Shown here: positions 16,140 through 51,001 of the stretch, piece after piece | Numbering within the stretch: position 1 is the stretch's first letter | How the letters are laid out: every line of letters starts with the position of its first letter | Source of the DNA: Escherichia coli | GTDB taxonomy: Bacteria > Pseudomonadota > Gammaproteobacteria > Enterobacterales > Enterobacteriaceae | DNA: 64,000 nucleotides | Strand: one strand, 5' to 3' | NCBI RefSeq assembly: GCF_003018115.1 | Contig: NZ_CP027457.1 | Made by a program: the position numbers and the translations under genes | The notes under the pieces: generated by a model | The model's database searches: none | Seen by the model: only the letters and a program-made list of their open reading frames with translations | Told to the model about the DNA's origin: nothing

Positions 16140-16595
16140 TTAACGTTGTGTCACGCGAATAGCCATTTGCGACTGTCTCTGCACTACAATTGCCGTTTTT
16201 TGAGTACCATACTGTGTAATATTTGCTTTATTACCAGAACCTTTCTGGATAATCATCGCAGTATTACCATAAGCACCTTGCGAAATACTGGCATCGTTGG
16301 CACTGCCCGCCTGATCAATATATGCAAGGTTATAATCTCCTGTCTGGTCAATCTTTGCCCGGTTGCTACTACCTTCTTGCGCAACAACCGCCAAAAGTTT
16401 TGAGCCTCCCTGCCGTAACTGAGCACTATTATTAGTCCCAGCTTGACCAATTATGGCTGCCTGATTAAATGAAGACTTACTCAATTCATTTACCGCGAAG
16501 TTATATTCTGAATTAGCTAAATCATAACCTGCTGCGGCTGCAATCCCAGGCGCACCCAGTATTGTTAACATCATAAATAACAATTTGTTTTTCAT
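16140..16595 (-). CDS. csgB: minor curlin nucleator subunit
   Basis: 151 aa from ATG 16595 (MKNKLLFMMLTILGAPGIAAA...). Confidence 0.92.
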   Translation of the reverse strand: MKNKLLFMMLTILGAPGIAAAAGYDLANSEYNFAVNELSKSSFNQAAIIGQAGTNNSAQLRQGGSKLLAVVAQEGSSNRAKIDQTGDYNLAYIDQAGSANDASISQGAYGNTAMIIQKGSGNKANITQYGTQKTAIVVQRQSQMAIRVTQR

Positions 16596-22892: not shown

Positions 22893-22980
22893 GGTGAGGT
22901 GTCCGAGTGGCTGAAGGAGCACGCCTGGAAAGTGTGTATACGGCAACGTATCGGGGGTTCGAATCCCCCCCTCACCGCCA
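22893..22980 (+). tRNA. serX: tRNA-Ser (anticodon GGA)
   Basis: 88-nt sequence with 7-bp acceptor stem ggtgagg / cctcacc, long variable arm, anticodon loop ctGGAaa, TPsiC ggttcgaatcc and 3' CCA. Confidence 0.93.
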
Positions 22981-37502: not shown

Positions 37503-38228
37503 TCAGTCCTTAAGTTTATTCATAGAAAGCCGCTCTTGGCGTTTAAGCTCATTTAAAGTGAAAAAAGCACATTTATTAGATAAAATATAAATAGTTCCTA
37601 CTAACCGATGTAAGCGCCTCATTTTTTCGGGCATAGAGAATTCAGCATTTTTGACAAACATTAAAGAATCAACCCCAGCAGAGAACATATATTGTAAACT
37701 TTCCATATTAAAAGCCTCTAGTGGATTTACTTCGTTAATATCAATACTATTAACAGACCTCTCTATTTCGAGGTAATCTTCACTTGTCATTGAATAGTCT
37801 ATTTTATGAGCGAATTTATTGCGGATAGAATTCAGCTTAACTAAAGAATTTGCAATTGAGAGAGGTAAACCTAAAGCAACACAGATCTCCAGTTTTGGAG
37901 TAAAATATCGTGATGGTTTAACGAACTGCTCAGTACCAGGCTTCCTAACATTGTTGATGAATACTTCCAAGAAATTCTCAATCAATAGGCTAAGTCTTAG
38001 CAAGACTGATGCTTCGTCATTTATACTTAGTAAAGGTGCAAATTTTTCTGCGTCAAGAAAGAAACCGAGGTCATTATTAATCGCTACATATCCAGTTAGA
38101 TTGTTATTTGACTTCATATTCATAAAAACCTTATCTTGTATATTAGCGGCATATTGTACCATAAATTGAATCGTGGTTTGTTCTAAGAATGGACACAAGA
38201 ACTTCCTCTCCTCACTCATAAGAGACAA
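37503..38228 (-). CDS. AT-rich hypothetical protein with HEPN-like Rx4H motif
   Basis: Track ORF of 241 aa (TTG start); likelier start ATG 38123 (MNMKSNNN..., AAGG RBS); motif LNSIRNKFAHKIDY fits the HEPN Rx4-6H signature; AT-rich codon usage. Confidence 0.45.
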   Translation of the reverse strand: MSLMSEERKFLCPFLEQTTIQFMVQYAANIQDKVFMNMKSNNNLTGYVAINNDLGFFLDAEKFAPLLSINDEASVLLRLSLLIENFLEVFINNVRKPGTEQFVKPSRYFTPKLEICVALGLPLSIANSLVKLNSIRNKFAHKIDYSMTSEDYLEIERSVNSIDINEVNPLEAFNMESLQYMFSAGVDSLMFVKNAEFSMPEKMRRLHRLVGTIYILSNKCAFFTLNELKRQERLSMNKLKD

Positions 38229-38230
38229 CC

Positions 38231-38267
38231 ATACTCAAATCTCCCACATTGCAGGAGATTTGAGTAT
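38231..38267. promoter_or_regulatory. perfect 14-bp inverted repeat in the divergent control region
   Basis: atactcaaatctcc (38231-38244) and ggagatttgagtat (38254-38267) separated by 9 bp; right arm contains the recombinase RBS (aggag) and first two bases of its ATG. Confidence 0.5.
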
Positions 38268-38868
38268 GAACACGTCACCGTGGAACAAAGACCGTATCAT
38301 CGCCCAAAAAAGACCACTTCAGATATCTCATATCTGGGAGATCCGAATCCGGCTTGAACTGGAAGGTAAAACGCGCGATTTAGCTCTGTTCAATATGGCC
38401 CAGGACAGTAAGCTTCGAGGCTGTGATCTGGTCAAACTCAAAGTATCGAATGTGGCATATGGTAGCTCGGTTTCAAGCAGAGAAACGGTGTTGCAACAAA
38501 AAACCGGTAACCTTGTGCAATTCGAGATAACCAAAGGGACAAGAGAAGCTGTTGCTGCATTGATAAAGCTTGGCAATTTGCACAGTAAAGACTTCTTGTT
38601 TCGGTCTCGGGTCGGAACTAATCGGCACATATCAACCCAGCAATACAGCCGAATTTTTCATGGGTGGGTAGAAAAGCTTGGTCTCGAAGCTTCGCTGTAC
38701 AGCACACAATCCATGAGAAGAACAAAACCTTACCTAATCTACAAGAAAACCAAGAATCTCCGGATCATCCAACTTCTGTTGGGTCATAAGAAACTGGAAA
38801 GCACGATCCGTTATCTGGGCATTGAAGTCGATGATGCGTTAGAGACCTCTGAATCGATTGAAGTCTAA
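38266..38868 (+). CDS. short (200 aa) tyrosine recombinase, FimB/FimE-like catalytic-domain-only architecture
   Basis: ATG 38266 with AGGAG RBS; Arg-I in SKLRGCDL, C-terminal LLGHKKLESTIRYLG with candidate catalytic Tyr; no N-terminal core-binding domain. Confidence 0.65.
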   Translation: MNTSPWNKDRIIAQKRPLQISHIWEIRIRLELEGKTRDLALFNMAQDSKLRGCDLVKLKVSNVAYGSSVSSRETVLQQKTGNLVQFEITKGTREAVAALIKLGNLHSKDFLFRSRVGTNRHISTQQYSRIFHGWVEKLGLEASLYSTQSMRRTKPYLIYKKTKNLRIIQLLLGHKKLESTIRYLGIEVDDALETSESIEV

Positions 38869-38895
38869 GGTTGTCAGAGCTGCAATAGCAGCCCC

Positions 38896-38910
38896 GTGCC
38901 AGGAGCGGAC
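38896..38910 (+). repeat. 15-bp direct repeat, copy 2 (gtgccaggagcggac)
   Basis: Identical to 37385-37399; the two copies bracket the HEPN-like gene and the short recombinase. Confidence 0.5.
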
Positions 38911-39026
38911 CTAACTAAGTTCATACAACATTGATTATTGAAGATTAGGTCAGAAATAAATACTTTATTTTGATAATTTAGTTACGTTAGAACACCGCAA
39001 TGTACAACGTAAAAATGAGGAATAAT

Positions 39027-40388
39027 ATGACTCGGAGTGAAATAAACGTCTGGGATGAGAGAAGAGGTACCAATAGTCATCGAGTGGAGGAGATTCGATC
39101 TGAAGCTCAGCACGACCTTTCTCGATTGATTCACTCGTCTGCTTTCAGACGATTACAATCCAAAACACAGGTTCTTGGTCTGGGTGAAAGTGATTTCTAC
39201 CGCACACGACTGACTCATTCTATGGAAGTCGCACAAATCGGTTCAGGTCTTCTTGCTAAGTTGAAAATAAAATATAAAGGTAAAGAGCAAGAGCAATTTT
39301 TACCAGATAACGCTCTTATGCAGGCAGTATGTCTCGCACATGATATTGGACATCCTCCATTTGGTCACGGCGGTGAGGTAGCTCTTAACTACTGTATGCA
39401 GGATTACGGTGGTTTTGAAGGAAACGGTCAGACGCTTCGCATTCTCTCGAAACTAGATAAGTATACCTTAGAACACGGACTCGATCCTACACGCAGACTT
39501 CTGCTAGGCATACTGAAATATCCGGTTAAATACTCGGAGCTAGTGGTTACAAAAGACAGAATCCCGGTCACTATCGGATCACCAAACTGGCTCTTTAAGT
39601 CATCTGATTTTAAACCTCCAAAATGCTATCTAGATTCAGAATGCGATGTTGTAAAATTTGCTCTCTCACCATTTACTGAACAGGATCGGAGGCTTTTTAC
39701 TTCCGTTGAAGATGGTCAAACTAAATCCGATCATAAAAAAGCTTCTTATAAAGCTCTCGATACAACTATAATGGATCTTGCCGATGAAATTTCGTATTCG
39801 CTGCACGATTTGGAGGATGCTATTTCTCTCGGAATGGTGACACGAGAAATGTGGATGGAGCATTTCAGTGAACATGAAACCCTATTTACTAACTGCCATG
39901 GAAAAATATTTTCCGAAACATGCCAATCTGTAGCGGATAGCCTTTTTGGTGAAAGTTACAAGAGAAAAGAGTGCATCGGGATGCTGGTTCACCTGATGAT
40001 TACAAGCGTTGAGCTTATTACAAAGAATCCAGCATTCGAATGTGGCATGCTCAAATATAATGCGGTCCTTCCGGAAGCGGTCGAAGCACTACGGTTGAAA
40101 ATTTTCAAACTGGTCAAAAATAAAGTAATTAAGCATGAAAATGTACAGCAGCTTGAATTCAAGGGACAAAAGTTGATTGTTGAGCTCTTCGGTGTGTTGG
40201 CGAACGATCCGTGTCGGTTTCTACCTGCCTCAACGAGGGAAATTTACGAGCGGCAGACTAGCTTAGACAAGAAGGCTGGTATGCGAGTCATTTGCGACTA
40301 TGTTTCAGGGATGACTGATGACTATGCAACAAAGCTTTATGAGAAGATCCTTATTCCACGCAAAGGGTCTATTTTTGACCATCTCTAA
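39027..40388 (+). CDS. dGTPase-family HD-domain triphosphohydrolase (accessory paralog)
   Basis: 453 aa from ATG 39027 (GAGG RBS); motifs RTRLTHSMEVAQIG, LAHDIGHPPFGHGGE, C-terminal CDYVSGMTDDYA; AT-rich, not at the core dgt locus. Confidence 0.8.
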   Translation: MTRSEINVWDERRGTNSHRVEEIRSEAQHDLSRLIHSSAFRRLQSKTQVLGLGESDFYRTRLTHSMEVAQIGSGLLAKLKIKYKGKEQEQFLPDNALMQAVCLAHDIGHPPFGHGGEVALNYCMQDYGGFEGNGQTLRILSKLDKYTLEHGLDPTRRLLLGILKYPVKYSELVVTKDRIPVTIGSPNWLFKSSDFKPPKCYLDSECDVVKFALSPFTEQDRRLFTSVEDGQTKSDHKKASYKALDTTIMDLADEISYSLHDLEDAISLGMVTREMWMEHFSEHETLFTNCHGKIFSETCQSVADSLFGESYKRKECIGMLVHLMITSVELITKNPAFECGMLKYNAVLPEAVEALRLKIFKLVKNKVIKHENVQQLEFKGQKLIVELFGVLANDPCRFLPASTREIYERQTSLDKKAGMRVICDYVSGMTDDYATKLYEKILIPRKGSIFDHL

Positions 40389-41372
40389 CACGGTAAGAAT
40401 GATACTCTGAGTTCAATTGACCTATAAACATTAACCAAGGCATCTACCAGGGGGGATATCAAATCCCCCCATTCTGAATTTGTTCATGCAGAATCGGTGA
40501 ACGTTCTCATCTGAGCGTTAAACGCCAATAATCATTGATCTACACTGATCATTAATACACCTTAATACCATTAGCGTCTTACTCCGTTATGAGAACAAAC
40601 GCGAACTTCCGCTGTTCGCTCAAAGCAGACCATTCGCTCAGTTAACGCATCAGTGTCGTGCTAGAAGTAGAAGTGGTTAACAACAATGTGAGTTAATCAA
40701 CGGAGAGCAGGTCAACTCTAACCTGTATCAAAAAACAAATGTGTCATAAAGATGCCGCATGCCTTAATTTGAGTATAATTGAGACGGAAGTAGACGGTTT
40801 ATGACTAGATATTGTTGATATATAGCTATTTGAAGAGTTGTAGCGCAAGCGCATAGCCCAAACTAATAACGCTACGCCCCTTATCAAAGAGCGGCAACGA
40901 TGCACAGCTCGCACGAGACAATATTCGCACAAGAAATCAGGTTCGGAAATAACCAGCTCTGGCATGGCGGGGAGAGTATCAATGGTCAGGCTTTCGGTAA
41001 GATGCGGCGGGATGAGGTCGGCGTGGGTTACAGCAGTACAAGGTCGCCCACAGAGGGTAAGCCACAGCGTGGAATCCTCGGTTTCTATCAGGGATTCGGC
41101 GAAGCGGGCGCAGTTGTCGACCAAGACGATGAAATCCATTGTGGCATTATAAGGGAACGAACAATAGATCGAGTAAATCGCAGTCAGGGACAAGGATTGT
41201 AGTCATAGAGAAGTCTCCTGTAACGGTTTTCAGGAGGCTAATCCCGACGCCTGATTTCGCAGGCGCGGAAAGAGAGGATACTGCGACCATTAATCCGCCA
41301 CAAGTCATTTACGTACATAAATCGCGCAGTCAGATCCGACTCCCACTGTAGTTCTTGAACTTGATACCACAT

Positions 41373-41389
41373 TTAGCTAATTTAGCTAA
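41373..41389. promoter_or_regulatory. tandem 8-bp palindrome TTAGCTAA x2, operator-like
   Basis: ttagctaa at 41373-41380 and 41382-41389, each self-complementary, about 25 bp upstream of ATG 41415. Confidence 0.4.
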
Positions 41390-41414
41390 ATTATCCAGTA
41401 TACCAGTGGTTGCC

Positions 41415-41660
41415 ATGAATATGAATGAAGATGAGATTTATCGCCATATCCGGCAGGCACTTTCCAGTGCGCCGCGTAACCAGTACACCGTCGAGCTACA
41501 CCTGCAAATGATTAAATATGCCGACGAACTGGAACACATTACGGCAAAAGCCTTTTGCGAAGGCACCGGTCTGAGCCAGAGCCTCGGTACCGAATTCAGC
41601 AAAATGCGTAACTTAACCCGTCGGTTGAAGGCCGCCGGTCTGAATACCGATCTGCTGTAA
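41415..41660 (+). CDS. small hypothetical protein upstream of hsdM, possible DNA-binding regulator
   Basis: 81 aa from ATG 41415 (MNMNEDEIYRHIRQALSS...); track ORF starts at TTG 41355; ends 40 bp before hsdM; function not recognised. Confidence 0.4.
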   Translation: MNMNEDEIYRHIRQALSSAPRNQYTVELHLQMIKYADELEHITAKAFCEGTGLSQSLGTEFSKMRNLTRRLKAAGLNTDLL

Positions 41661-41699
41661 CCGACTTACGGCAGATTATCGCGCAAAACGAGATATTTA

Positions 41700-44138
41700 A
41701 TGGCTATCAAAAAAACCGAACTCTATTCTTCCCTGTGGGCAAGCTGCGACGAACTGCGTGGCGGGATGGACGCCAGCCAGTACAAAGACTATGTACTGAC
41801 CCTGCTGTTTATGAAGTACGTTTCCGATAAGTATAAAGGCGATCCTTACGGGATGATCGTGATACCCAAAGGAGCCAGCTTTGACGATATGGTTGCGCTG
41901 AAAAATGACAAAGAGATCGGCGACAAAATCAACAAAATCATCCACAAGCTGGCGGAAGAGAACGGCCTGAAGGGCGTCATCGACGAAGCCGACTTTAACG
42001 ACGAAGATAAGCTCGGCAAAGGCAAGGAAATGATTGACCGCCTGAGCAAGCTTGTCGGTATCTTTGAAGGGTTAGATCTCTCCAGCAACCGGGCCGAAGG
42101 CGACGATCTGTTGGGCGATGCCTATGAATATCTGATGCGTCACTTCGCAACCGAATCCGGCAAGAGTAAAGGGCAGTTTTACACTCCGGCGGAGGTGTCA
42201 CGTATTCTGGCGAAGGTGATTGGTATTACTCCCGATACGCCGCGAGATGCAACGGTTTATGACCCAACCTGTGGCTCTGGTTCGCTGCTGTTGAAAGTGA
42301 ATGATGAAGCCCGGCGCGGACTATCGATTTTCGGCCAGGAGATGGATAACGCTACCAGTGCACTGGCGCGGATGAACATGATTCTGCATAACAATGCCAC
42401 CGCGAAAATCTGGCAGGGTAATACGCTGAGCGATCCGCAGTGGAAAGAGGCGAACGGCAAACTGAAAGCCTTCGATTTTGCCGTGGCGAACCCGCCTTTT
42501 TCCAATAAAAACTGGACCAACGGGTTGACGCCGAAAAAAGATCCGTTTGAACGCTTCGGCTGGGGCATTCCGCCGGAGAAAAACGGCGATTATGCTTTTT
42601 TGCTGCATATCATTAAAAGCCTGAAAAGTACCGGCAAAGGCGCGGTGATCCTGCCCCATGGCGTACTGTTTCGCGGTAACGCCGAGGCAAATATCCGTGA
42701 AAATCTAATCAAGCAGGGCTATATCAAAGGCGTTATTGGTTTGCCGGCCAACCTGTTTTACGGCACCGGCATCCCGGCGTGCATTATTGTGATTGATAAA
42801 GAGCACGCCCACAGCCGCAAAGGCATTTTTATGATCGACGCCAGTCGGGGCTTTATCAAAGATGGCAACAAGAACCGCCTGCGTAGCCGAGATATTCACC
42901 GCATTGTGGACGTGTTCAACCATCAGCGAACGGTGCCGGGCTACAGCCGGATGGTGCCCTCCAGCGAGATCGCCGGAAATGATTACAACCTGAATATTCC
43001 TCGCTATATCGAGAGCGGCGAGCCGGAAGATTTGCACGATCTGACCGCGCACTTACAGGGCGGTATTCCAGCACGCGATGTGGATGCTTTGCAGGATTAC
43101 TGGCGGGTATTCCCTGCCCTGCGCAACGTGCTGTTTGCTGACGACCGTTCCGGTTACTGTCGGGCGCAGGTGAACGCGCAGCAGGTGAAACCAACCATTC
43201 TGGCACATCAGGAGTTTAAGGATTTTGCCACCCGCAGCCTGCTACCGTTTAAAGCGTGGGTGAAAGAGGCAAGTCTGGAAGAGATTCGCAAAGGTGATAA
43301 ACCCAAAGCGCTGATCCACGATATCAGCGAGATGTTGCTTGTGCAGTACGCCAACAGTGAGTTGCTGAACAAGTACAGCGTGTACCAGATCCTGATGGAT
43401 TACTGGGCTGATGTCATGCAGGACGATGTGTATGTGATTATGCAGGATGGCTGGCAAGCCGCCGCGCAAATCCGCGAGCTTCAACCGGTGAAAGGCAAAG
43501 ATGGCAAAAACATCTGGAAAGAAACGCACGATTTCGAGTTTACCAAACAGCGCTACAAGGCCGATGTGCTACCCCGTTCACTAGTGGAAATTCGCTGCTT
43601 CCCGGAACTGCTGGATACGTTGAACCGCGCGCAGGAGCGCAGTGAAGAAGCCAGTCGTCAGCTAGCGGAACTCATCGAGGAGCAGGCAGGGGAAGAGGAT
43701 CTGCTGGCTGAGGCGAAGAACGATAAAGATAAGGTGACGCAAAAGCTGGTGAATGCCCGTCTGGCACAGTTGAAGAAAACCCCTGCCGACCCAGATGAGC
43801 TGGCAGTGCTGAACCGCTGTCTGGCGCTGATTAAGGCCGAGGCCAGTGCGAAAAAAGCGCTGAAAGCCGCACAGGAAGCGTTGGATCGAGCGGTATTTAA
43901 ACATTATCCCACGCTGGATGAAACAGCGATTAAAACGCTGGTAGTGCAGGATAAGTGGCTGGCAACGTTGCAGGCAGGAATCAAGGCGGAGATTGAGCGT
44001 ATTACCCAGCAACTGGCGTCGCGCGTAAAGGAGCTGGAAGAGCGTTATGCTGAACCGTTGCCAGCGCTTGAAGCCTCCGTTGAGGCGTTGAGCGAGAAAG
44101 TGGCCGGGCATTTGCGGGCGATGGGGCTGGAGTGGTGA
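41700..44138 (+). CDS. hsdM: type I restriction-modification N6-adenine DNA methyltransferase subunit, long form
   Basis: 812 aa; HsdM N-terminal domain, SAM motif DPTCGSGSLL, catalytic NPPF (VANPPFS); about 300-aa C-terminal coiled-coil-like extension. Confidence 0.9.
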   Translation: MAIKKTELYSSLWASCDELRGGMDASQYKDYVLTLLFMKYVSDKYKGDPYGMIVIPKGASFDDMVALKNDKEIGDKINKIIHKLAEENGLKGVIDEADFNDEDKLGKGKEMIDRLSKLVGIFEGLDLSSNRAEGDDLLGDAYEYLMRHFATESGKSKGQFYTPAEVSRILAKVIGITPDTPRDATVYDPTCGSGSLLLKVNDEARRGLSIFGQEMDNATSALARMNMILHNNATAKIWQGNTLSDPQWKEANGKLKAFDFAVANPPFSNKNWTNGLTPKKDPFERFGWGIPPEKNGDYAFLLHIIKSLKSTGKGAVILPHGVLFRGNAEANIRENLIKQGYIKGVIGLPANLFYGTGIPACIIVIDKEHAHSRKGIFMIDASRGFIKDGNKNRLRSRDIHRIVDVFNHQRTVPGYSRMVPSSEIAGNDYNLNIPRYIESGEPEDLHDLTAHLQGGIPARDVDALQDYWRVFPALRNVLFADDRSGYCRAQVNAQQVKPTILAHQEFKDFATRSLLPFKAWVKEASLEEIRKGDKPKALIHDISEMLLVQYANSELLNKYSVYQILMDYWADVMQDDVYVIMQDGWQAAAQIRELQPVKGKDGKNIWKETHDFEFTKQRYKADVLPRSLVEIRCFPELLDTLNRAQERSEEASRQLAELIEEQAGEEDLLAEAKNDKDKVTQKLVNARLAQLKKTPADPDELAVLNRCLALIKAEASAKKALKAAQEALDRAVFKHYPTLDETAIKTLVVQDKWLATLQAGIKAEIERITQQLASRVKELEERYAEPLPALEASVEALSEKVAGHLRAMGLEW

Positions 44139-45445
44139 TGGTGGATTTAATGGTGAATGAGCAACGATCAGGTACGGCGGGGAAAGATGTGCCTGCGGGG
44201 TATAAGCTGACTGAGGTGGGGGTGATTCCTGAGGATTGGGTAGTAATCTCTATTGATGACTGTACAACCAAAGTTGGTAGTGGAAAAACACCAACTGGTG
44301 GAGCATCTGTTTATATTGATAGCGGACGCCCTTTTGTCCGTAGCCAAAATGTTGATTGGGGAAGATTAGATCTCGCCGATGTCGTACATATTACAGATGA
44401 AACCCATAACACATTCTCTGGTTCTGAAATTCAGCAAGATGATGTTTTACTCAACATAACGGGAGCATCTATCGGCCGATGCGCTAAAGCTGATTTTAGG
44501 GTTATAGGTGGTAATGTTAACCAACATGTTTGCATCATCAGAACAGAGGCAAAAAAACTCTCCCCATCCTTACTGGTTGAATTAATCAATTCAAATTATG
44601 GACAAAACCAGATTGATAGTTATCAAGCCGGAGGAAACAGAGAAGGACTGAATTTTTCTCAAGTTAAAAATCTTAAGTTTGCTATTACACCAAACTCCCT
44701 TGAACAAACGGAAATTGTCAGAACATTAAATGATATTAATGCATTCACTCTCGCTCTGGAAAACTTAATTGCTAAAAAACAGGCCATAAAAGCCGCTGCT
44801 ATGCAACAACTACTCACCGGTAAAACCCGTTTGCCGCAGTTTGCGTTGCGCAAAGATGGATCTGCTAAGAGATATAAAAAGAGCAAGTTGGGGGAGACTC
44901 CAGAAGATTGGGCAGTTAATAATATTGGAGATTTATTCTCCATTACCGCAGGAGGAGATTTAAGACAGTCTGAATTCTCTAATATTCAATCTGAAAAACA
45001 TCTTTACCCTATTTATTCCAATGCAATTAGTCATTATGGTTTATATGGCTATTGCCAGAGTTATGATTATGTTGGTGACTATCTAACAATCACTGCGAGG
45101 GGAGGAATCGGCCATGCCGTGGCAAGAAAAGGAAGATTCTGTGCAATTGGACGATTATTAGTTCTTAGTCCAAAAGGAGATTCAAACGTAAAATTTTATG
45201 AAGGGTATATAAACCAATACTTATCATTTGCAAATGAGAGCACTGGAGTCCCTCAACTTACAGCTCCTCAAGTTGCAAAATATCCGGTTGTTTCCCCATG
45301 CATTGAAGAACAAACCGCCATCGCCACCATCCTCTCCGATATGGACAAGGAAATTCAGACCCTGCAACAACGTCTGGACAAAACCCGTCAGCTTAAACAG
45401 GGGATGATGCAGGAGCTGTTAACCGGGAAAACACGCTTAATATAA
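44132..45445 (+). CDS. hsdS: type I R-M specificity subunit
   Basis: 437 aa from GTG overlapping hsdM stop by 7 nt; two target-recognition domains separated by conserved repeats (LLTGKTRL twice). Confidence 0.9.
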
Positions 45446-45456
45446 AAGGGAAACCT

Positions 45457-46103
45457 ATGACTACAGCGCCAGCCTCAATCCGCAAAAAGCCCTGATCTGG
45501 CGTATCGTCCATCGGGACAATATCCCGTGGATTCTGGACAATGGTCTGCACTGCGGCAACAGCCCGGTGCAGGCTGCTAACTGGATCAATATCGGCAACC
45601 CGGAGCTTATCGGCAAGCACGCCGGACATCCGGTACCTGTCGGGACGGGCGGGACACTGCGTGACTATGTGCCATTTTATTTTACCCCCTTCTCGCCAAT
45701 GCTGATGAACATCCACAGCGGACGTGGCGGCATTAAGCAACGCCCCAATGAAGAGATCGTTATTCTGGTCAGCAGCCTGCGGCACGTGGCAGCACACGAC
45801 GTGCCCTTCGTGTTTACCGACAGCCATGCTTACTATAACTGGACCAACTACTACACCAGTCTGGATAGTCTGGACCAGATCGACTGGCCCATTTTGCAGG
45901 CACGGGACTTTCGCCGCGATCCAGACGATCCGGCTAAATTTGAACGCTATCAGGCAGAGGCGCTAATCTGGCAACACTGCCCGATCTCGCTGCTGGATGG
46001 GATAATTTGTTACAGCGAAGAGGTCAGGTTACAATTAGAACAATGGTTGTTTCAGCGTAATCTAACAATGTCCGTTCACACACGGGCTGGATTGGTACTT
46101 CTC
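45457..46103 (+). pseudogene. darT: DarT-like (DUF4433) ssDNA ADP-ribosyltransferase, N-terminus disrupted by frameshift
   Basis: ATG 45457 with AAGGG RBS reads [12 protein letters not shown] then stop; one extra A in the A5 run 45484-45488 would give [34 protein letters not shown]... continuous with track ORF 45567; candidate catalytic Glu in [10 protein letters not shown]. Confidence 0.6.
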
Positions 46104-47171
46104 ATGATCACATATACACAAGGCAATTTACTGGACGCACCGGTGGAAGCTCTGGTGAATACGGTTAATACCGTCGGTGTCATGGGGAAAGGCATCGCGT
46201 TGATGTTTAAAGAGCGCTTCCACGAAAATATGAAAGCCTATGCCCTCGCCTGCAAACAAAAGCAGGTGATCACCGGCAAAATGTTCATTACCGAAACCGG
46301 GGAACTGATGGGACCGCGCTGGATTGTTAATTTTCCGACCAAACAGCACTGGCGCGCTGACTCCCGCATGGGGTGGATTGAAGATGGCTTACAAGACTTA
46401 CGTCGATTTTTGATTGAAGAGAACGTGCAATCCATCGCCATTCCACCGCTGGGCGCAGGCAACGGTGACTTGAACTGGCCGGACGTTCGGGCGCAGATTG
46501 AATCTGCCCTTGGCGACCTTCAGGACGTTGATATCCTGATTTACCAACCAACTGAAAAATACCAGAACGTTGCCAAAAGCACTGGCGTAAAAAAGCTCAC
46601 TCCCGCCAGAGCCGCCATCGCTGAACTGGTGCGTCGCTACTGGGTATTGGGGATGGAGTGCAGCCTACTGGAAATCCAGAAACTGGCCTGGCTGTTACAA
46701 CGCGCCCTTAAGCAGCATCAACAGGACGATATCCTCAAACTGCGGTTTGAAGCTCACTATTATGGCCCCTATGCGCCCAATCTGAACCATCTGCTTAATG
46801 CGCTGGACGGCACCTATCTTAAAGCCGAGAAACGCATCCCGGACAGCCAACCGCTGGATGTGATCTGGTTTAACGATCAGAAAAAAGAACACGTTAATGC
46901 GTATCTGAACAGCGAAGCCAGAGAGTGGCTACCGGCGCTGGAGCAGGTCAGCCAGTTAATTGACGGCTTTGAATCGCCGTTTGGTCTGGAGCTGCTGGCA
47001 ACCGTAGACTGGTTGCTGAGCCGTGGCGAATGTCAACCAACACTGGATTCCGTTAAGGAAGGGCTGCACCAGTGGCCTGCGGGCGAACACTGGGCCAGCC
47101 GTAAGTTGAGGCTGTTTGATAATAATAATCTGCAATTTGCCATTAACCGCGTAATGGAGTTCCATTGCTGA
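46104..47171 (+). CDS. darG: DarG-like macrodomain antitoxin
   Basis: Starts [39 protein letters not shown] with [10 protein letters not shown] macrodomain motifs plus a C-terminal domain; in this sequence in frame with the DarT-like region, no intervening stop. Confidence 0.7.
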
Positions 47172-47189: not shown

Positions 47190-50100
47190 TTGAGTACCGT
47201 GGGCCAGCGCGAACGCGCCACACAGCAGCGTCTGATTCAGTTTTTTGTTGAAGATTTAGGTTACCGCCATCTGAGTCACCGCACCGGGTACACCGGGAAC
47301 AGCAACATCGACACTAATATACTGAGCGCGTGGCTAAAACGGCGCGGCGTTAATGATACGTTGATCACCCGGGCGTTGCGGCAACTGGATTCCGCCGCCG
47401 CTCTGGGCGAAGGCAAAAAACTCTATTACGCCAATAAAGAGGTCTATCGCCTGCTACGTTACGGCGTGAAAGACAAAGAAGGCGCAGGCGAGCAGAACCA
47501 AACCGTGTGGCTGATTGACTGGGCCAACCCACAAGCCAATGATTTCGCCATCGCCGATGAGGTGACGGTCAAAGGCGAGTACTGCAAGCGCCCGGATCTG
47601 GTGCTGTACGTTAACGGCATTGCGCTGGGCGTGATTGAACTTAAGCGTTCGTCAGTGCACGTCAGCGAAGGCATCCGGCAGAATCTCGATAATCAAAAGA
47701 AAACCTTTATCCGCGATTTCTTCACCACTATGCAGTTAGTGATGGCGGGCAACGATACGCAGGGCCTGCGCTACGGCACCATCGAAACCCCGGAAAAATA
47801 CTATCTGGAGTGGAAAGAAGATAATCCAGGCGACTATACACATAAACTCGACTTTCATTTAAGTCGTCTGTGTAGCAAATCCAGGCTGTTGGATATCGTC
47901 CATAATTACATTGCCTTTGATGTCGGAGTGAAAAAACTCTGCCGCCATAATCAGTTCTTCGGCGTCGAGGCGGCTAAACAACATATTGCCCGTCGTGAAG
48001 GCGGTATTATCTGGCACACACAGGGATCGGGTAAAAGCCTGACGATGGTCTGGCTGGCGAAGTGGATCCGTGAAAATGTGCCAAACTCCCGCGTGTTGAT
48101 TGTGACTGACCGCACCGAACTGGATGAACAGATCGAAAGCGTGTTTATGGGCGTGAATGAAGATATTTATCGCACCTCCAGCGGCAACGATCTTATCGCA
48201 ACGCTCAATCATCCTAACCCGTGGCTCATTTGCTCGCTGGTGCATAAATTTGGTCGTCGCAGCGAAGCTGAAGACAATGCGGCTACCGACGCCTTTATCA
48301 CCGAATTACAGCAGTCCCTGACGAAAACATTCCGCGCCAAAGGCGATCTGTTTGTTTTTGTGGACGAGTGCCACCGCACACAATCCGGCAAGCTGCATAA
48401 CGCCATGACTGCCATTCTGCCGGACGCCCTGTTTATCGGTTTTACCGGCACACCGCTGATGAAGAAAGATAAGAAGAAGTCGGTTGAGGTGTTCGGCCCT
48501 TATATCCATACCTATAAATTTGATGAAGCGGTGGCCGACGGTGTGGTGCTGGATCTGCGCTACGAGGCACGCGATATTGACCAGTATCTGACATCAGAGA
48601 AAAAGGTCGATGACTGGTTTGAAGCCAAGACTCGCGGTTTGTCGAATTTAGCCAGGACCCAGCTTAAGCAAAAGTGGGGATCAATGCAGAAGCTGCTCTC
48701 CAGCAAGTCGAGGCTGGAGCAGATCGTTAACGACATTTTGCTGGATATGGATACCCGTCCACGCCTGATGGACGGGCGCGGCAACGCCATGCTGGTATGC
48801 AGCAGTATCTATCAAGCCTGCAAGGTTTACGAGATGTTCAGCCAGACCGAGCTGGCAGGAAAAGTAGCGATTGTGACCAGCTATCGCCCCGATGCCGCCA
48901 GCATCAAAGGCGAAGAAACGGGCGAAGGGTTAACGGAGAAACTCTCTAAACACGCCACCTATCGTAAAATGTTGGCTGACTATTTTGAACAAAGTGAAGA
49001 GAAGGCCGCCGCACGCATTACCGAGTTCGAGCGGGAAGTGAAACAGCGTTTTATTGAAGAGCCGGGGCAAATGCGCCTGCTTATCGTGGTGGATAAGCTG
49101 CTGACTGGCTTTGACGCGCCGTCCGCCACCTATCTCTACATTGATAAAACCATGACCGACCATACGCTGTTTCAGGCGATTTGTCGGGTGAACCGGCTGG
49201 ACGGTGAGGATAAAGAGTATGGCTATATTATCGATTATAAAGATCTGTTCCGTTCGCTGGATAAAGCGATTACCGATTACACCACGGGCGCGTTTGATGA
49301 TTACGATCGGGACGATGTGGCCGGGTTGCTGAAAGACAGGCTGGAGCAGGCGCAACTGGATCTCGACAGCGCGCTGGAGATGGTTCGCAGCTTATGTGAA
49401 CCCGTCAAAACCCCGCGCAGCCTGCAGGACTATCAGCACTATTTTTGCGGTGAATCAGGAGAGAATCAGACTTCGTTAAACGAAAAAGAGGCGCTGCGCC
49501 TGACATTTTACCAGTGCGTCGCCCGTCTGCTACGCGCTTATGCCAGCATCGCCAATGAAATGCCGGAAGCAGGCTACACTGCCGAAGAGGTAGAGAGCAT
49601 TCGCGCCGAAGTCGCTGAATTCGAAAAACTGCGCTATGAGATTAAGCTGACCAGCGGCGATCTTCTGGATATGAAGCGCTTTGAACCCGCTATGCGTCAT
49701 TTACTGGATATGTATGTTCGCGCCGATGATAGCGAAGTGCTGATGGATTTTGAAGAGTTAAGTCTGATTGAACTGATTGTCGAGAAAGGCTTGGCGGCGA
49801 CCGTCGCCCTGCCGGATGATATCCGTAATAATCAGGATGCGATGGCGGAAACCATCGAAAACAACGTGCGCAAAACCATCGTGGATGAAAACCCGGTTAA
49901 CCCAAAATACTATGGACGCATGTCGCAGCTGCTGGATGAACTGATTACCCTTCGCCGACAAAATGCGCTCAATTATCAGCAGTATCTGGAACGTATCCGC
50001 GATTTGTGTAAACAAGTCATCCGCCCGGAGCAAACCGCCGGAGCGTGCTACCCTGCCACCATGGATACACAAGCAAAGCGCGCCTTCTATGATAACTTCG

Positions 50101-50285
50101 GCCACGACGAGGTACTGGCGACCCGCATAGATACGACGATTCGCTATACCAAAAGGGCAGAGTGGATTGGCGATCGTTTTAAAGAACGGGAAATTGCCAA
50201 CGCATTACGTGAAGAGACCGCCAGCTATAATATTGATATTGATGAGGTGATAGCGCTTGCCCGTCAGCAGAAGGAATATCACTGA
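47190..50285 (+). CDS. hsdR: type I R-M restriction endonuclease/translocase subunit
   Basis: 1031 aa from TTG 47190 with AAGGAG RBS; PD-(D/E)xK region then SF2 helicase motifs (TQGSGKS, DECHRTQ). Confidence 0.9.
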   Translation: MSTVGQRERATQQRLIQFFVEDLGYRHLSHRTGYTGNSNIDTNILSAWLKRRGVNDTLITRALRQLDSAAALGEGKKLYYANKEVYRLLRYGVKDKEGAGEQNQTVWLIDWANPQANDFAIADEVTVKGEYCKRPDLVLYVNGIALGVIELKRSSVHVSEGIRQNLDNQKKTFIRDFFTTMQLVMAGNDTQGLRYGTIETPEKYYLEWKEDNPGDYTHKLDFHLSRLCSKSRLLDIVHNYIAFDVGVKKLCRHNQFFGVEAAKQHIARREGGIIWHTQGSGKSLTMVWLAKWIRENVPNSRVLIVTDRTELDEQIESVFMGVNEDIYRTSSGNDLIATLNHPNPWLICSLVHKFGRRSEAEDNAATDAFITELQQSLTKTFRAKGDLFVFVDECHRTQSGKLHNAMTAILPDALFIGFTGTPLMKKDKKKSVEVFGPYIHTYKFDEAVADGVVLDLRYEARDIDQYLTSEKKVDDWFEAKTRGLSNLARTQLKQKWGSMQKLLSSKSRLEQIVNDILLDMDTRPRLMDGRGNAMLVCSSIYQACKVYEMFSQTELAGKVAIVTSYRPDAASIKGEETGEGLTEKLSKHATYRKMLADYFEQSEEKAAARITEFEREVKQRFIEEPGQMRLLIVVDKLLTGFDAPSATYLYIDKTMTDHTLFQAICRVNRLDGEDKEYGYIIDYKDLFRSLDKAITDYTTGAFDDYDRDDVAGLLKDRLEQAQLDLDSALEMVRSLCEPVKTPRSLQDYQHYFCGESGENQTSLNEKEALRLTFYQCVARLLRAYASIANEMPEAGYTAEEVESIRAEVAEFEKLRYEIKLTSGDLLDMKRFEPAMRHLLDMYVRADDSEVLMDFEELSLIELIVEKGLAATVALPDDIRNNQDAMAETIENNVRKTIVDENPVNPKYYGRMSQLLDELITLRRQNALNYQQYLERIRDLCKQVIRPEQTAGACYPATMDTQAKRAFYDNFGHDEVLATRIDTTIRYTKRAEWIGDRFKEREIANALREETASYNIDIDEVIALARQQKEYH

Positions 50286-51001
50286 TGCCAATCATGCAAA
50301 TAGGCTCGTTACACTTGCTGGTCAACCGTAAGGCGATTAAGAATCTGCATATCAGCGTGCTGCCGCCTGATGGCAAAGTCCGCGTTTCAGCGCCGGAACA
50401 TATGACGGAGACGGCGATTCGTATGGCGGTTGCTTCACGCTTTCGCTGGATCAGAAAACAGCAGCAGGATTTCGCCAGACAGCCTCGTCAATCAGAGAGG
50501 GAAATGGTCAGCGGAGAGTGCCACTATCTTTGGGGCCGAAGATATCGCCTACTTGTGATTGAGCGTCACGGGCGTCACGAAGTAAAAGTTGCGGGAAATA
50601 ATAAGCTCCAGCTTTATGTTCAACCGGGAACCCGTGATGAAAATAAGGCATTGGCGTTAAGTGAATTTTATCGACATGAACTAAAACAGCAGGTGGCTAA
50701 GCTTCTACCTGAATGGCAGGACCGAATCGGTGTTCCCCTAACATTCTGGGGCATCAAAAAGATGAAAACCTTTTGGGGCACCTGTAACACTACAACAAAA
50801 CGAATCTGGCTCAATCTGGAGCTAATTAAGAAGCCGCCGGAGTGTCTGGAGTATATTCTGGTGCATGAACTGGTTCATCTTCTGGAACGTCACCATAATG
50901 CTCGCTTCCGGTTGCATATGGATCGGTTTATTCCTGACTGGCGTGAGCGTCGGGATTTGTTAAATAATATGCCGTTAGCGTTTGAGGCATGGGAGTATTG
51001 A
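50285..51001 (+). CDS. YgjP-like (DUF45/M48-type) zinc metallopeptidase
   Basis: 238 aa; HExxH in HELVHLLERHH; ATG overlaps hsdR stop (TGATG). Confidence 0.75.
   Translation: MPIMQIGSLHLLVNRKAIKNLHISVLPPDGKVRVSAPEHMTETAIRMAVASRFRWIRKQQQDFARQPRQSEREMVSGECHYLWGRRYRLLVIERHGRHEVKVAGNNKLQLYVQPGTRDENKALALSEFYRHELKQQVAKLLPEWQDRIGVPLTFWGIKKMKTFWGTCNTTTKRIWLNLELIKKPPECLEYILVHELVHLLERHHNARFRLHMDRFIPDWRERRDLLNNMPLAFEAWEY

Follow-up and report, generated by a model that had tools for sequence, protein, structure and literature searches.

The small ORF that precedes hsdM in the stretch of E. coli DNA analysed here (64,000 nucleotides in length, hereafter the window) is assigned as rptR, and the tandem repeat upstream of it as the putative RptR operator. 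It is very probable that RptR is a dimeric repressor, which binds to the phased TAGCTA operator of the window and both autoregulates and silences the island promoter. Repression of a Type I R-M/DarTG island by RptR has already been explained in print, in July 2025 (PMC12255303), and the observation reported here is a rediscovery. As judged from its sequence, the window carries a naturally occurring allele of this system, in which the operator is of the minimal two-site type and darT is disrupted, and it adds nothing fundamental to what has been published. The minor additions beyond PMC12255303 are the natural operator variants of E. coli, the disrupted darT, and the RptR cassettes located before other defence cargo.

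The rptR gene and its product

A sequence-only reading of the window had described a small ORF upstream of hsdM, and this ORF is confirmed. Its first ATG is located at 41415, 25 bp past the repeat, and gives a protein of 81 aa; its stop codon ends at 41660. The ORF ends just before hsdM, which starts at 41700, as claimed, but the gap between them is 39 nt instead of 40 bp. A second ATG in the same frame, at 41421, is the start that is kept in homologues and chosen by PGAP, and the resulting 79-aa protein is also the form that has been crystallised. rptR, which is predicted from the function of its EPEC orthologue to encode a 79-aa repressor, is therefore given here as 41421-41660 of the plus strand (PF24718; 9R2Z; PGAP protein WP_024175231.1). 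The RefSeq name for WP_024175231.1 is 'HTH-like domain-containing protein', and five E. coli genomes are 100% identical to the window over a 561-bp query (41200-41760).

The family of this protein was not recognised in the sequence-only reading, and can now be named as RptR, Pfam HTH_73. The protein matches the Pfam profile PF24718 (HTH_73, 'HTH-like domain') with E=3e-29, over residues 4-73 of the 81-aa form and positions 1-70 of the 71 positions of the model. Beyond HTH_73, Pfam gives a single non-significant match, NCBIfam gives no significant family, and no model of PADLOC-DB 2023 matches the protein. Search of the PDB by sequence gives a single entry, 9R2Z, with E=1.5e-47 and 77 of 79 residues identical (97.5%). 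This entry is RptR, the 'RMS-proximal transcriptional regulator' of EPEC E2348/69 (WP_000343040.1; Zhang et al., Nucleic Acids Res 2025, PMC12255303), and its crystal structure, determined at 1.3 Å, is a four-helix homodimer. The authors' fold searches with RptR gave no close PDB homologue. In their AlphaFold 3 model, two splayed helices of the dimer touch both halves of a 6-bp palindrome in one major groove (PMC12255303). According to the authors, RptR may resemble bZIP proteins in that a short palindrome is read by two dimer helices, a proposed structural analogy, but the extended leucine zipper of bZIP proteins is missing from RptR.

The window protein differs from 9R2Z at two positions, N2D and E36K, both of which are outside the contact and dimer residues named in PMC12255303. 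All of the alpha-4 residues listed there as contacting DNA (T57, E58, F59, S60, and K61) and all of the listed dimer residues (V24, E25, L65, R68, L69, A72, and L74) are present in the window protein. Nine of them, E58, F59, S60, K61, E25, L65, L69, A72, and L74, are invariant across an alignment of 25 sequences. The window protein is thus assigned to the RptR family, since it has every feature of this family that is testable by sequence.

RptR of EPEC has been characterised by EMSA, GFP reporters, and phage assays (PMC12255303). The EPEC island consists of seven genes, rptR-hsdM-hsdS-darT-darG-hsdR-M48, and gives protection from several phages. Its promoter is active in the absence of RptR, and RptR only represses it, by ~10-fold. 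Overexpression of RptR abolishes the defence, whereas overexpression of the S60G mutant, in which binding and repression are lost, does not. The repression is lifted on phage infection (PMC12255303). The window is similar to this system in 77 of the 79 residues of RptR, the Pfam family, the TTTAGCTAA unit, the -35 hexamer, the spacing, and the order of the seven genes.

Putative operator and promoter of the window

The repeat had been described as a pair of octamers, TTAGCTAA, which are 1 bp apart. These octamers are indeed located at 41373-41380 and 41382-41389, so that the region 41373-41389 reads TTAGCTAA-T-TTAGCTAA. The window contains three copies of the octamer, as compared to 0.65 expected from shuffles, and at least three copies are present in 0 of 100 shuffles. 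The third copy, at 16513, is isolated, as a search of 40 bp around it gives no partner hexamer. The 17-mer over 41373-41389 is unique within the window; its sole further match has three mismatches and overlaps the 17-mer itself. A pair of 9-bp direct repeats, TTTAGCTAA, each with the palindrome TAGCTA inside, followed by a degenerate unit, ATTATCCAG, describes the arrangement better. The order read on the window is ...TTGAACTTGATACCACA TTTAGCTAA TTTAGCTAA ATTATCCAG TATACCAGTGGTTGCC ATG AAT ATG AAT GAA... On the plus strand, repeat 1 spans 41372-41380 (core TAGCTA at 41374-41379) and is identical to the EPEC unit bound in EMSA, repeat 2 spans 41381-41389 (core TAGCTA at 41383-41388), and the degenerate third unit (TATCCA) spans 41390-41398 and is predicted not to bind RptR by itself.

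In EPEC, RptR binds cooperatively to three 9-bp direct repeats, TTTAGCTAA, with a KD of ~185 nM and a Hill coefficient of 3.4 (PMC12255303). The minimal site is TAGCTA, in which T/A is allowed at G5/C6, and any change of a core base lowered the binding in two-repeat probes. Two adjacent repeats are sufficient for RptR binding and full repression in vivo, whereas one repeat is insufficient (PMC12255303). In the EPEC operator, CTTATCCAT is preceded by three perfect repeats; in that of the window, ATTATCCAG is preceded by two.

The promoter of the island, which is also that of rptR, has its -35 hexamer, TTGAAC, at 41355-41360 and its -10 box, AGCTAATTT, at 41375-41383 of the plus strand. The -35 hexamer and its 14-bp distance to AGCTAATTT are as in EPEC, and the box matches the 5' -10 box of EPEC and overlaps repeats 1 and 2. 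The -10 hexamer, TAATTT, is located at 41378-41383, 17 bp past TTGAAC. Two TAGCTA hexamers in 9-bp phase (41374 and 41383) are located 5' of rptR in the window, and they overlap the -10 box. A simple consensus promoter scanner misses this rightward promoter, because its -10 is a weak match to the consensus, and the promoter is placed on the basis of the EPEC reporter data. In EPEC, the -35 TTGAAC is followed 14 bp downstream by the functional -10 box AGCTAATTT, which the repeats overlap; the activity of the GFP reporter is lowered when the -35 is scrambled, and the 5' -10 box is required for promoter activity (PMC12255303).

The scanner calls a site on the minus strand, TTCATA-17-TATACT at 41425-41397, with a TG-extended -10. 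The operator could also, or mainly, control a leftward promoter at this site, from which a transcript would start at ~41390 and cross the repeats toward the C4/isrK-like element described below and the minus-strand ORF 41193-40744. A perfect TGGTATAAT is present there on the minus strand in three other aligned E. coli alleles. However, two sites are found by scanning in this region as compared to 1.2 expected by chance, the AT-rich operator units mimic -10 boxes on both strands, and such a promoter would supplement the main explanation rather than replace it. Control of a leftward promoter is therefore considered unlikely, and the 41397-41425 site may either have arisen by chance or be a convergent promoter that RptR controls as well. 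Permitted hexamers (TAGATA, TATATA, and TAGCTA) are also clustered within 23 bp at 40806-40828, ~550 bp upstream of the operator. This cluster was rejected as an RptR array: its spacings are 13, 4, and 17 bp, out of the 9-bp phase, and it is probably a chance occurrence in an AT-rich stretch.

Repression from the rightward promoter, the preferred reading, would proceed as follows. Each RptR dimer would read one 6-bp palindrome, TAGCTA, and the dimers would load cooperatively on sites 9 bp apart. The single promoter (TTGAAC, 17 bp, TAATTT) would drive rptR and then, by read-through, hsdM-hsdS-darT-darG-hsdR-M48. Because the repeats overlap the -10 element, the occupied operator would block RNA polymerase, so that rptR would be negatively autoregulated and the defence island kept at a low basal level, a repression that phage infection would relieve. 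From the near-identical protein, the identical repeat units, and the promoter geometry, we infer that the two-repeat operator of the window is bound and repressed as in EPEC. The points against this mechanism are that the window has only two consensus sites, the published minimum for full repression, that its third unit, TATCCA, departs from the core, and that its promoter matches the consensus too weakly for the simple scanner to call it.

According to the sequence-only reading, the arrangement resembles autoregulated controller (C) proteins with their operator boxes in R-M systems. A small autoregulated regulator with operator boxes before an R-M operon is supported by the experiments on the EPEC orthologue, which is 97.5% identical and has identical repeat units. 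The likeness to C proteins holds for the arrangement, but not for the family or the mode of control. C proteins have an HTH of the lambda-cI/Xre type and bind to long C-box operators across two major grooves. They both activate and repress, and their genes are located upstream of the endonuclease gene. The C proteins of Type II R-M systems (C.PvuII, C.AhdI, C.Esp1396I, and C.Csp231I) are similar to RptR in that they are small dimeric autoregulators heading an R-M operon, with tandem palindromic sites overlapping the promoter, and the RptR authors use the words 'akin to' (PMC12255303). In a classical C-protein switch, the protein would activate from a high-affinity site at low dose and repress from a second site at high dose, so that restriction would be delayed on entry into a new host. 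The place of rptR before an R-M operon, the small size and dimeric state of its product, the tandem palindromic sites, and the autoregulation are all as expected for such a switch. Nevertheless, the window protein has no HTH of the Xre/lambda-cI type, as Pfam gives HTH_73 only and NCBIfam nothing significant, and its sites are 6-bp palindromes in 9-bp direct repeats, not C-boxes with two longer palindromes spanning two major grooves each. The EPEC promoter is active without RptR and is merely repressed by it, its activity falling steadily with dose and no activation phase being reported. Likewise, rptR precedes hsdM and not the endonuclease gene, hsdR being 5.5 kb downstream, and RptR controls the whole island; the authors draw the same contrast (PMC12255303). 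A C-protein switch is therefore highly improbable, and repression is the only activity of RptR demonstrated so far.

The defence island and its surroundings

rptR is the first gene of a defence operon that contains the full hsdMS-darTG-hsdR-M48 set, all on the plus strand. The first cargo gene, hsdM (812 aa), spans 41700-44138, and no terminator-like site is found in the 39-nt interval between rptR and hsdM. It is followed by hsdS (44138-45445, PGAP coordinates transferred from the 100% identical locus L001), darT (45492-46107), darG (46104-47171, PGAP), hsdR (1031 aa, 47190-50285, PGAP), and the last gene of the island, which encodes an M48-family metallopeptidase (50285-51001; WP_001122107.1, an accession common to EPEC). 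We infer that these downstream genes are co-transcribed from the single promoter over the ~9.5-kb island, although internal promoters are possible.

The island differs from that of EPEC in hsdS and darT as well. The hsdS genes are different alleles (WP_000228012.1 in the window and WP_000228010.1 in EPEC), and darT, which PGAP annotates as 'frameshifted', is disrupted when aligned with EPEC darT. A 7-bp deletion at its start, corresponding to one tandem copy of CCTATGR, results in loss of the in-frame start, and a 1-bp insertion near its 3' end joins the remaining darT frame to the darG frame. As a result, the darT-darG region (45492-47171) contains an ORF of 534 aa that begins at an internal GTG (45567), and the part that encodes the antitoxin DarG is intact.

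The 5' neighbours of the island are also different. The region just upstream of it in the window, 38173-40388, contains a truncated tyrosine recombinase and an 'anti-phage deoxyguanosine triphosphatase' (39000-40388), whereas IS elements are present in EPEC. The recombinase and the dGTPase of the window and the IS elements of EPEC suggest that the rptR island lies within a larger mosaic defence region. Genes for Ag43, an IrmA-family protein, and a GTPase-family protein are annotated just left of the island. tRNA-Ser(GGA) is located at 22893-22980, ~18 kb left of the repeat, and is probably the integration site of a genomic island that carries the defence region.

An element with two hairpins is present on the minus strand at 41205-41279, ~75 bp left of the rptR -35 and upstream of the minus-strand ORF 41193-40744. 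It scores 38.2 bits against the Rfam family c4-a1b1 (E=6e-8), below the gathering score of 46.7, and 39.2 bits against isrK, for which the gathering score is 50. The core of this C4/isrK-like element (~41213-41286) is found in 1,072 of 5,426 complete E. coli genomes, mostly without rptR, and is sometimes annotated as 'ash family protein'. The element looks like a remnant of a P4/P1-type C4/CI-RNA target, and such a remnant hints that the island is housed in a P4-like satellite.

Operator variants, conservation, and cargo

Among the 5,426 complete E. coli genomes, the greater part of the rptR promoter region is found in 247. In only four records, all of the O127:H6 E2348/69 lineage, does the match extend over the 9 bp added by the third perfect repeat. 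When two TAGCTA repeats followed by CTTATCTAT (TATCTA) are used as a query, 204 of 249 E. coli records match at >=99%, and CTTATCTAT is also found at the third-unit position in two close E. coli relatives that were aligned. The TATCTA core is a permitted variant that is predicted to bind RptR (PMC12255303). The exact form of the window, with two perfect repeats and TATCCA, is found in five records. O157-group strain 319 (one record read, 97.1%) also has TATCCA, beside a truncated rptR. The three-repeat operator of EPEC is thus a rare form, and the two-site form of the window a minority (operator-variation loci L002, L003, L004, and L085).

In a scan of one genome per species, 80 loci with RptR relatives (64-94% identical) are found, of which 79 were scored and one is cut by a contig end. 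A TA[GT][CA]TA pair with a spacing of exactly 9 or 18 bp lies no more than 100 bp 5' of rptR in 67 of these 79 loci. When 100-bp segments from elsewhere in these loci are tested as controls, such a pair is present in three of 7,943, and in none of the 1,323 that are AT-rich. In most of the 67 loci, three such sites are present, located at approximately -30 to -60. This survey reproduces the published conservation claim (PMC12255303) on another sample, with the phased sites retained across genera.

These data bear on whether the repeat may have arisen by slipped-strand duplication of a -10-like element, with no protein bound to it and with the ORF as an unrelated small gene. The number of units is 2 or 3 among strains and the -10 box lies within the repeat, as this explanation would predict. 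However, the phased hexamers are kept in the 67 of 79 divergent loci while their flanks are not, and EMSA with point mutations gives sequence-specific binding in EPEC, which refutes slippage there (PMC12255303). Slippage without function is therefore extremely improbable, and the repeat is regarded as the operator of RptR.

The sequence-only reading would have been refuted by an ORF that is not retained in front of hsdM homologues. The ORF is retained there: in 29 of the 80 loci, rptR is followed by hsdM of the window type, which begins 33-75 nt past rptR in those loci whose match starts at hsdM residue 1. Other types of hsdM are present in seven loci. A TrlF/Ppl-like ATPase with a ~400-aa partner is the cargo in 14 loci; this cargo is recorded for L011-L017, L020, L022, L041, L049, L056, L066, L069, and L073. 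Type III Mod/Res (L075, L077, and L082), an HKD-Snf2 helicase (L080, L081, and L084), and an Hsp70-like protein with an IetA-like AAA protein (L034, L036, and L061) are each present in three loci, and the remaining 21 loci have other cargo. The Type III, Snf2, and Hsp70-like cargo are absent from the RptR paper (PMC12255303). The loci with non-Type I cargo mostly have hexamer arrays 5' of rptR; a few, such as L066, L069, L073, and L080-L082, have one consensus site or none.

CapH of CBASS is similar to RptR in that it is a small repressor heading a defence operon, which is de-repressed on infection. However, CapH has a dedicated partner protease, CapP, whereas no RptR counterpart is known. The M48 peptidase was considered as a CapP-like dedicated protease of RptR. 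By tblastn, none of the 80 loci from other species has an M48 homologue in its 6-kb flanks, which are too short to be informative for Type I loci. This candidate was rejected, since no M48 homologue is found in the flanks of the non-R-M cargo loci that have room for one, and M48 is therefore not an obligate partner of RptR.

We give an even chance to a reading in which RptR and its phased TAGCTA array form a portable promoter-repressor cassette that is not tied to Type I R-M. If it is true, the de-repression signal would be independent of the cargo and probably phage-derived. Variation of the operator could then set the threshold, the number of sites being two in the window, 2+1 in the form most common in E. 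coli, and three in EPEC.

Control of Type I R-M has long been thought to be mainly post-translational, via restriction alleviation by ClpXP. With RptR, a whole defence island is under transcriptional repression and is induced on infection (PMC12255303). Two sites are claimed to suffice (PMC12255303), and the allele of the window offers a natural means of testing this, as well as one data point on operator copy number among strains.
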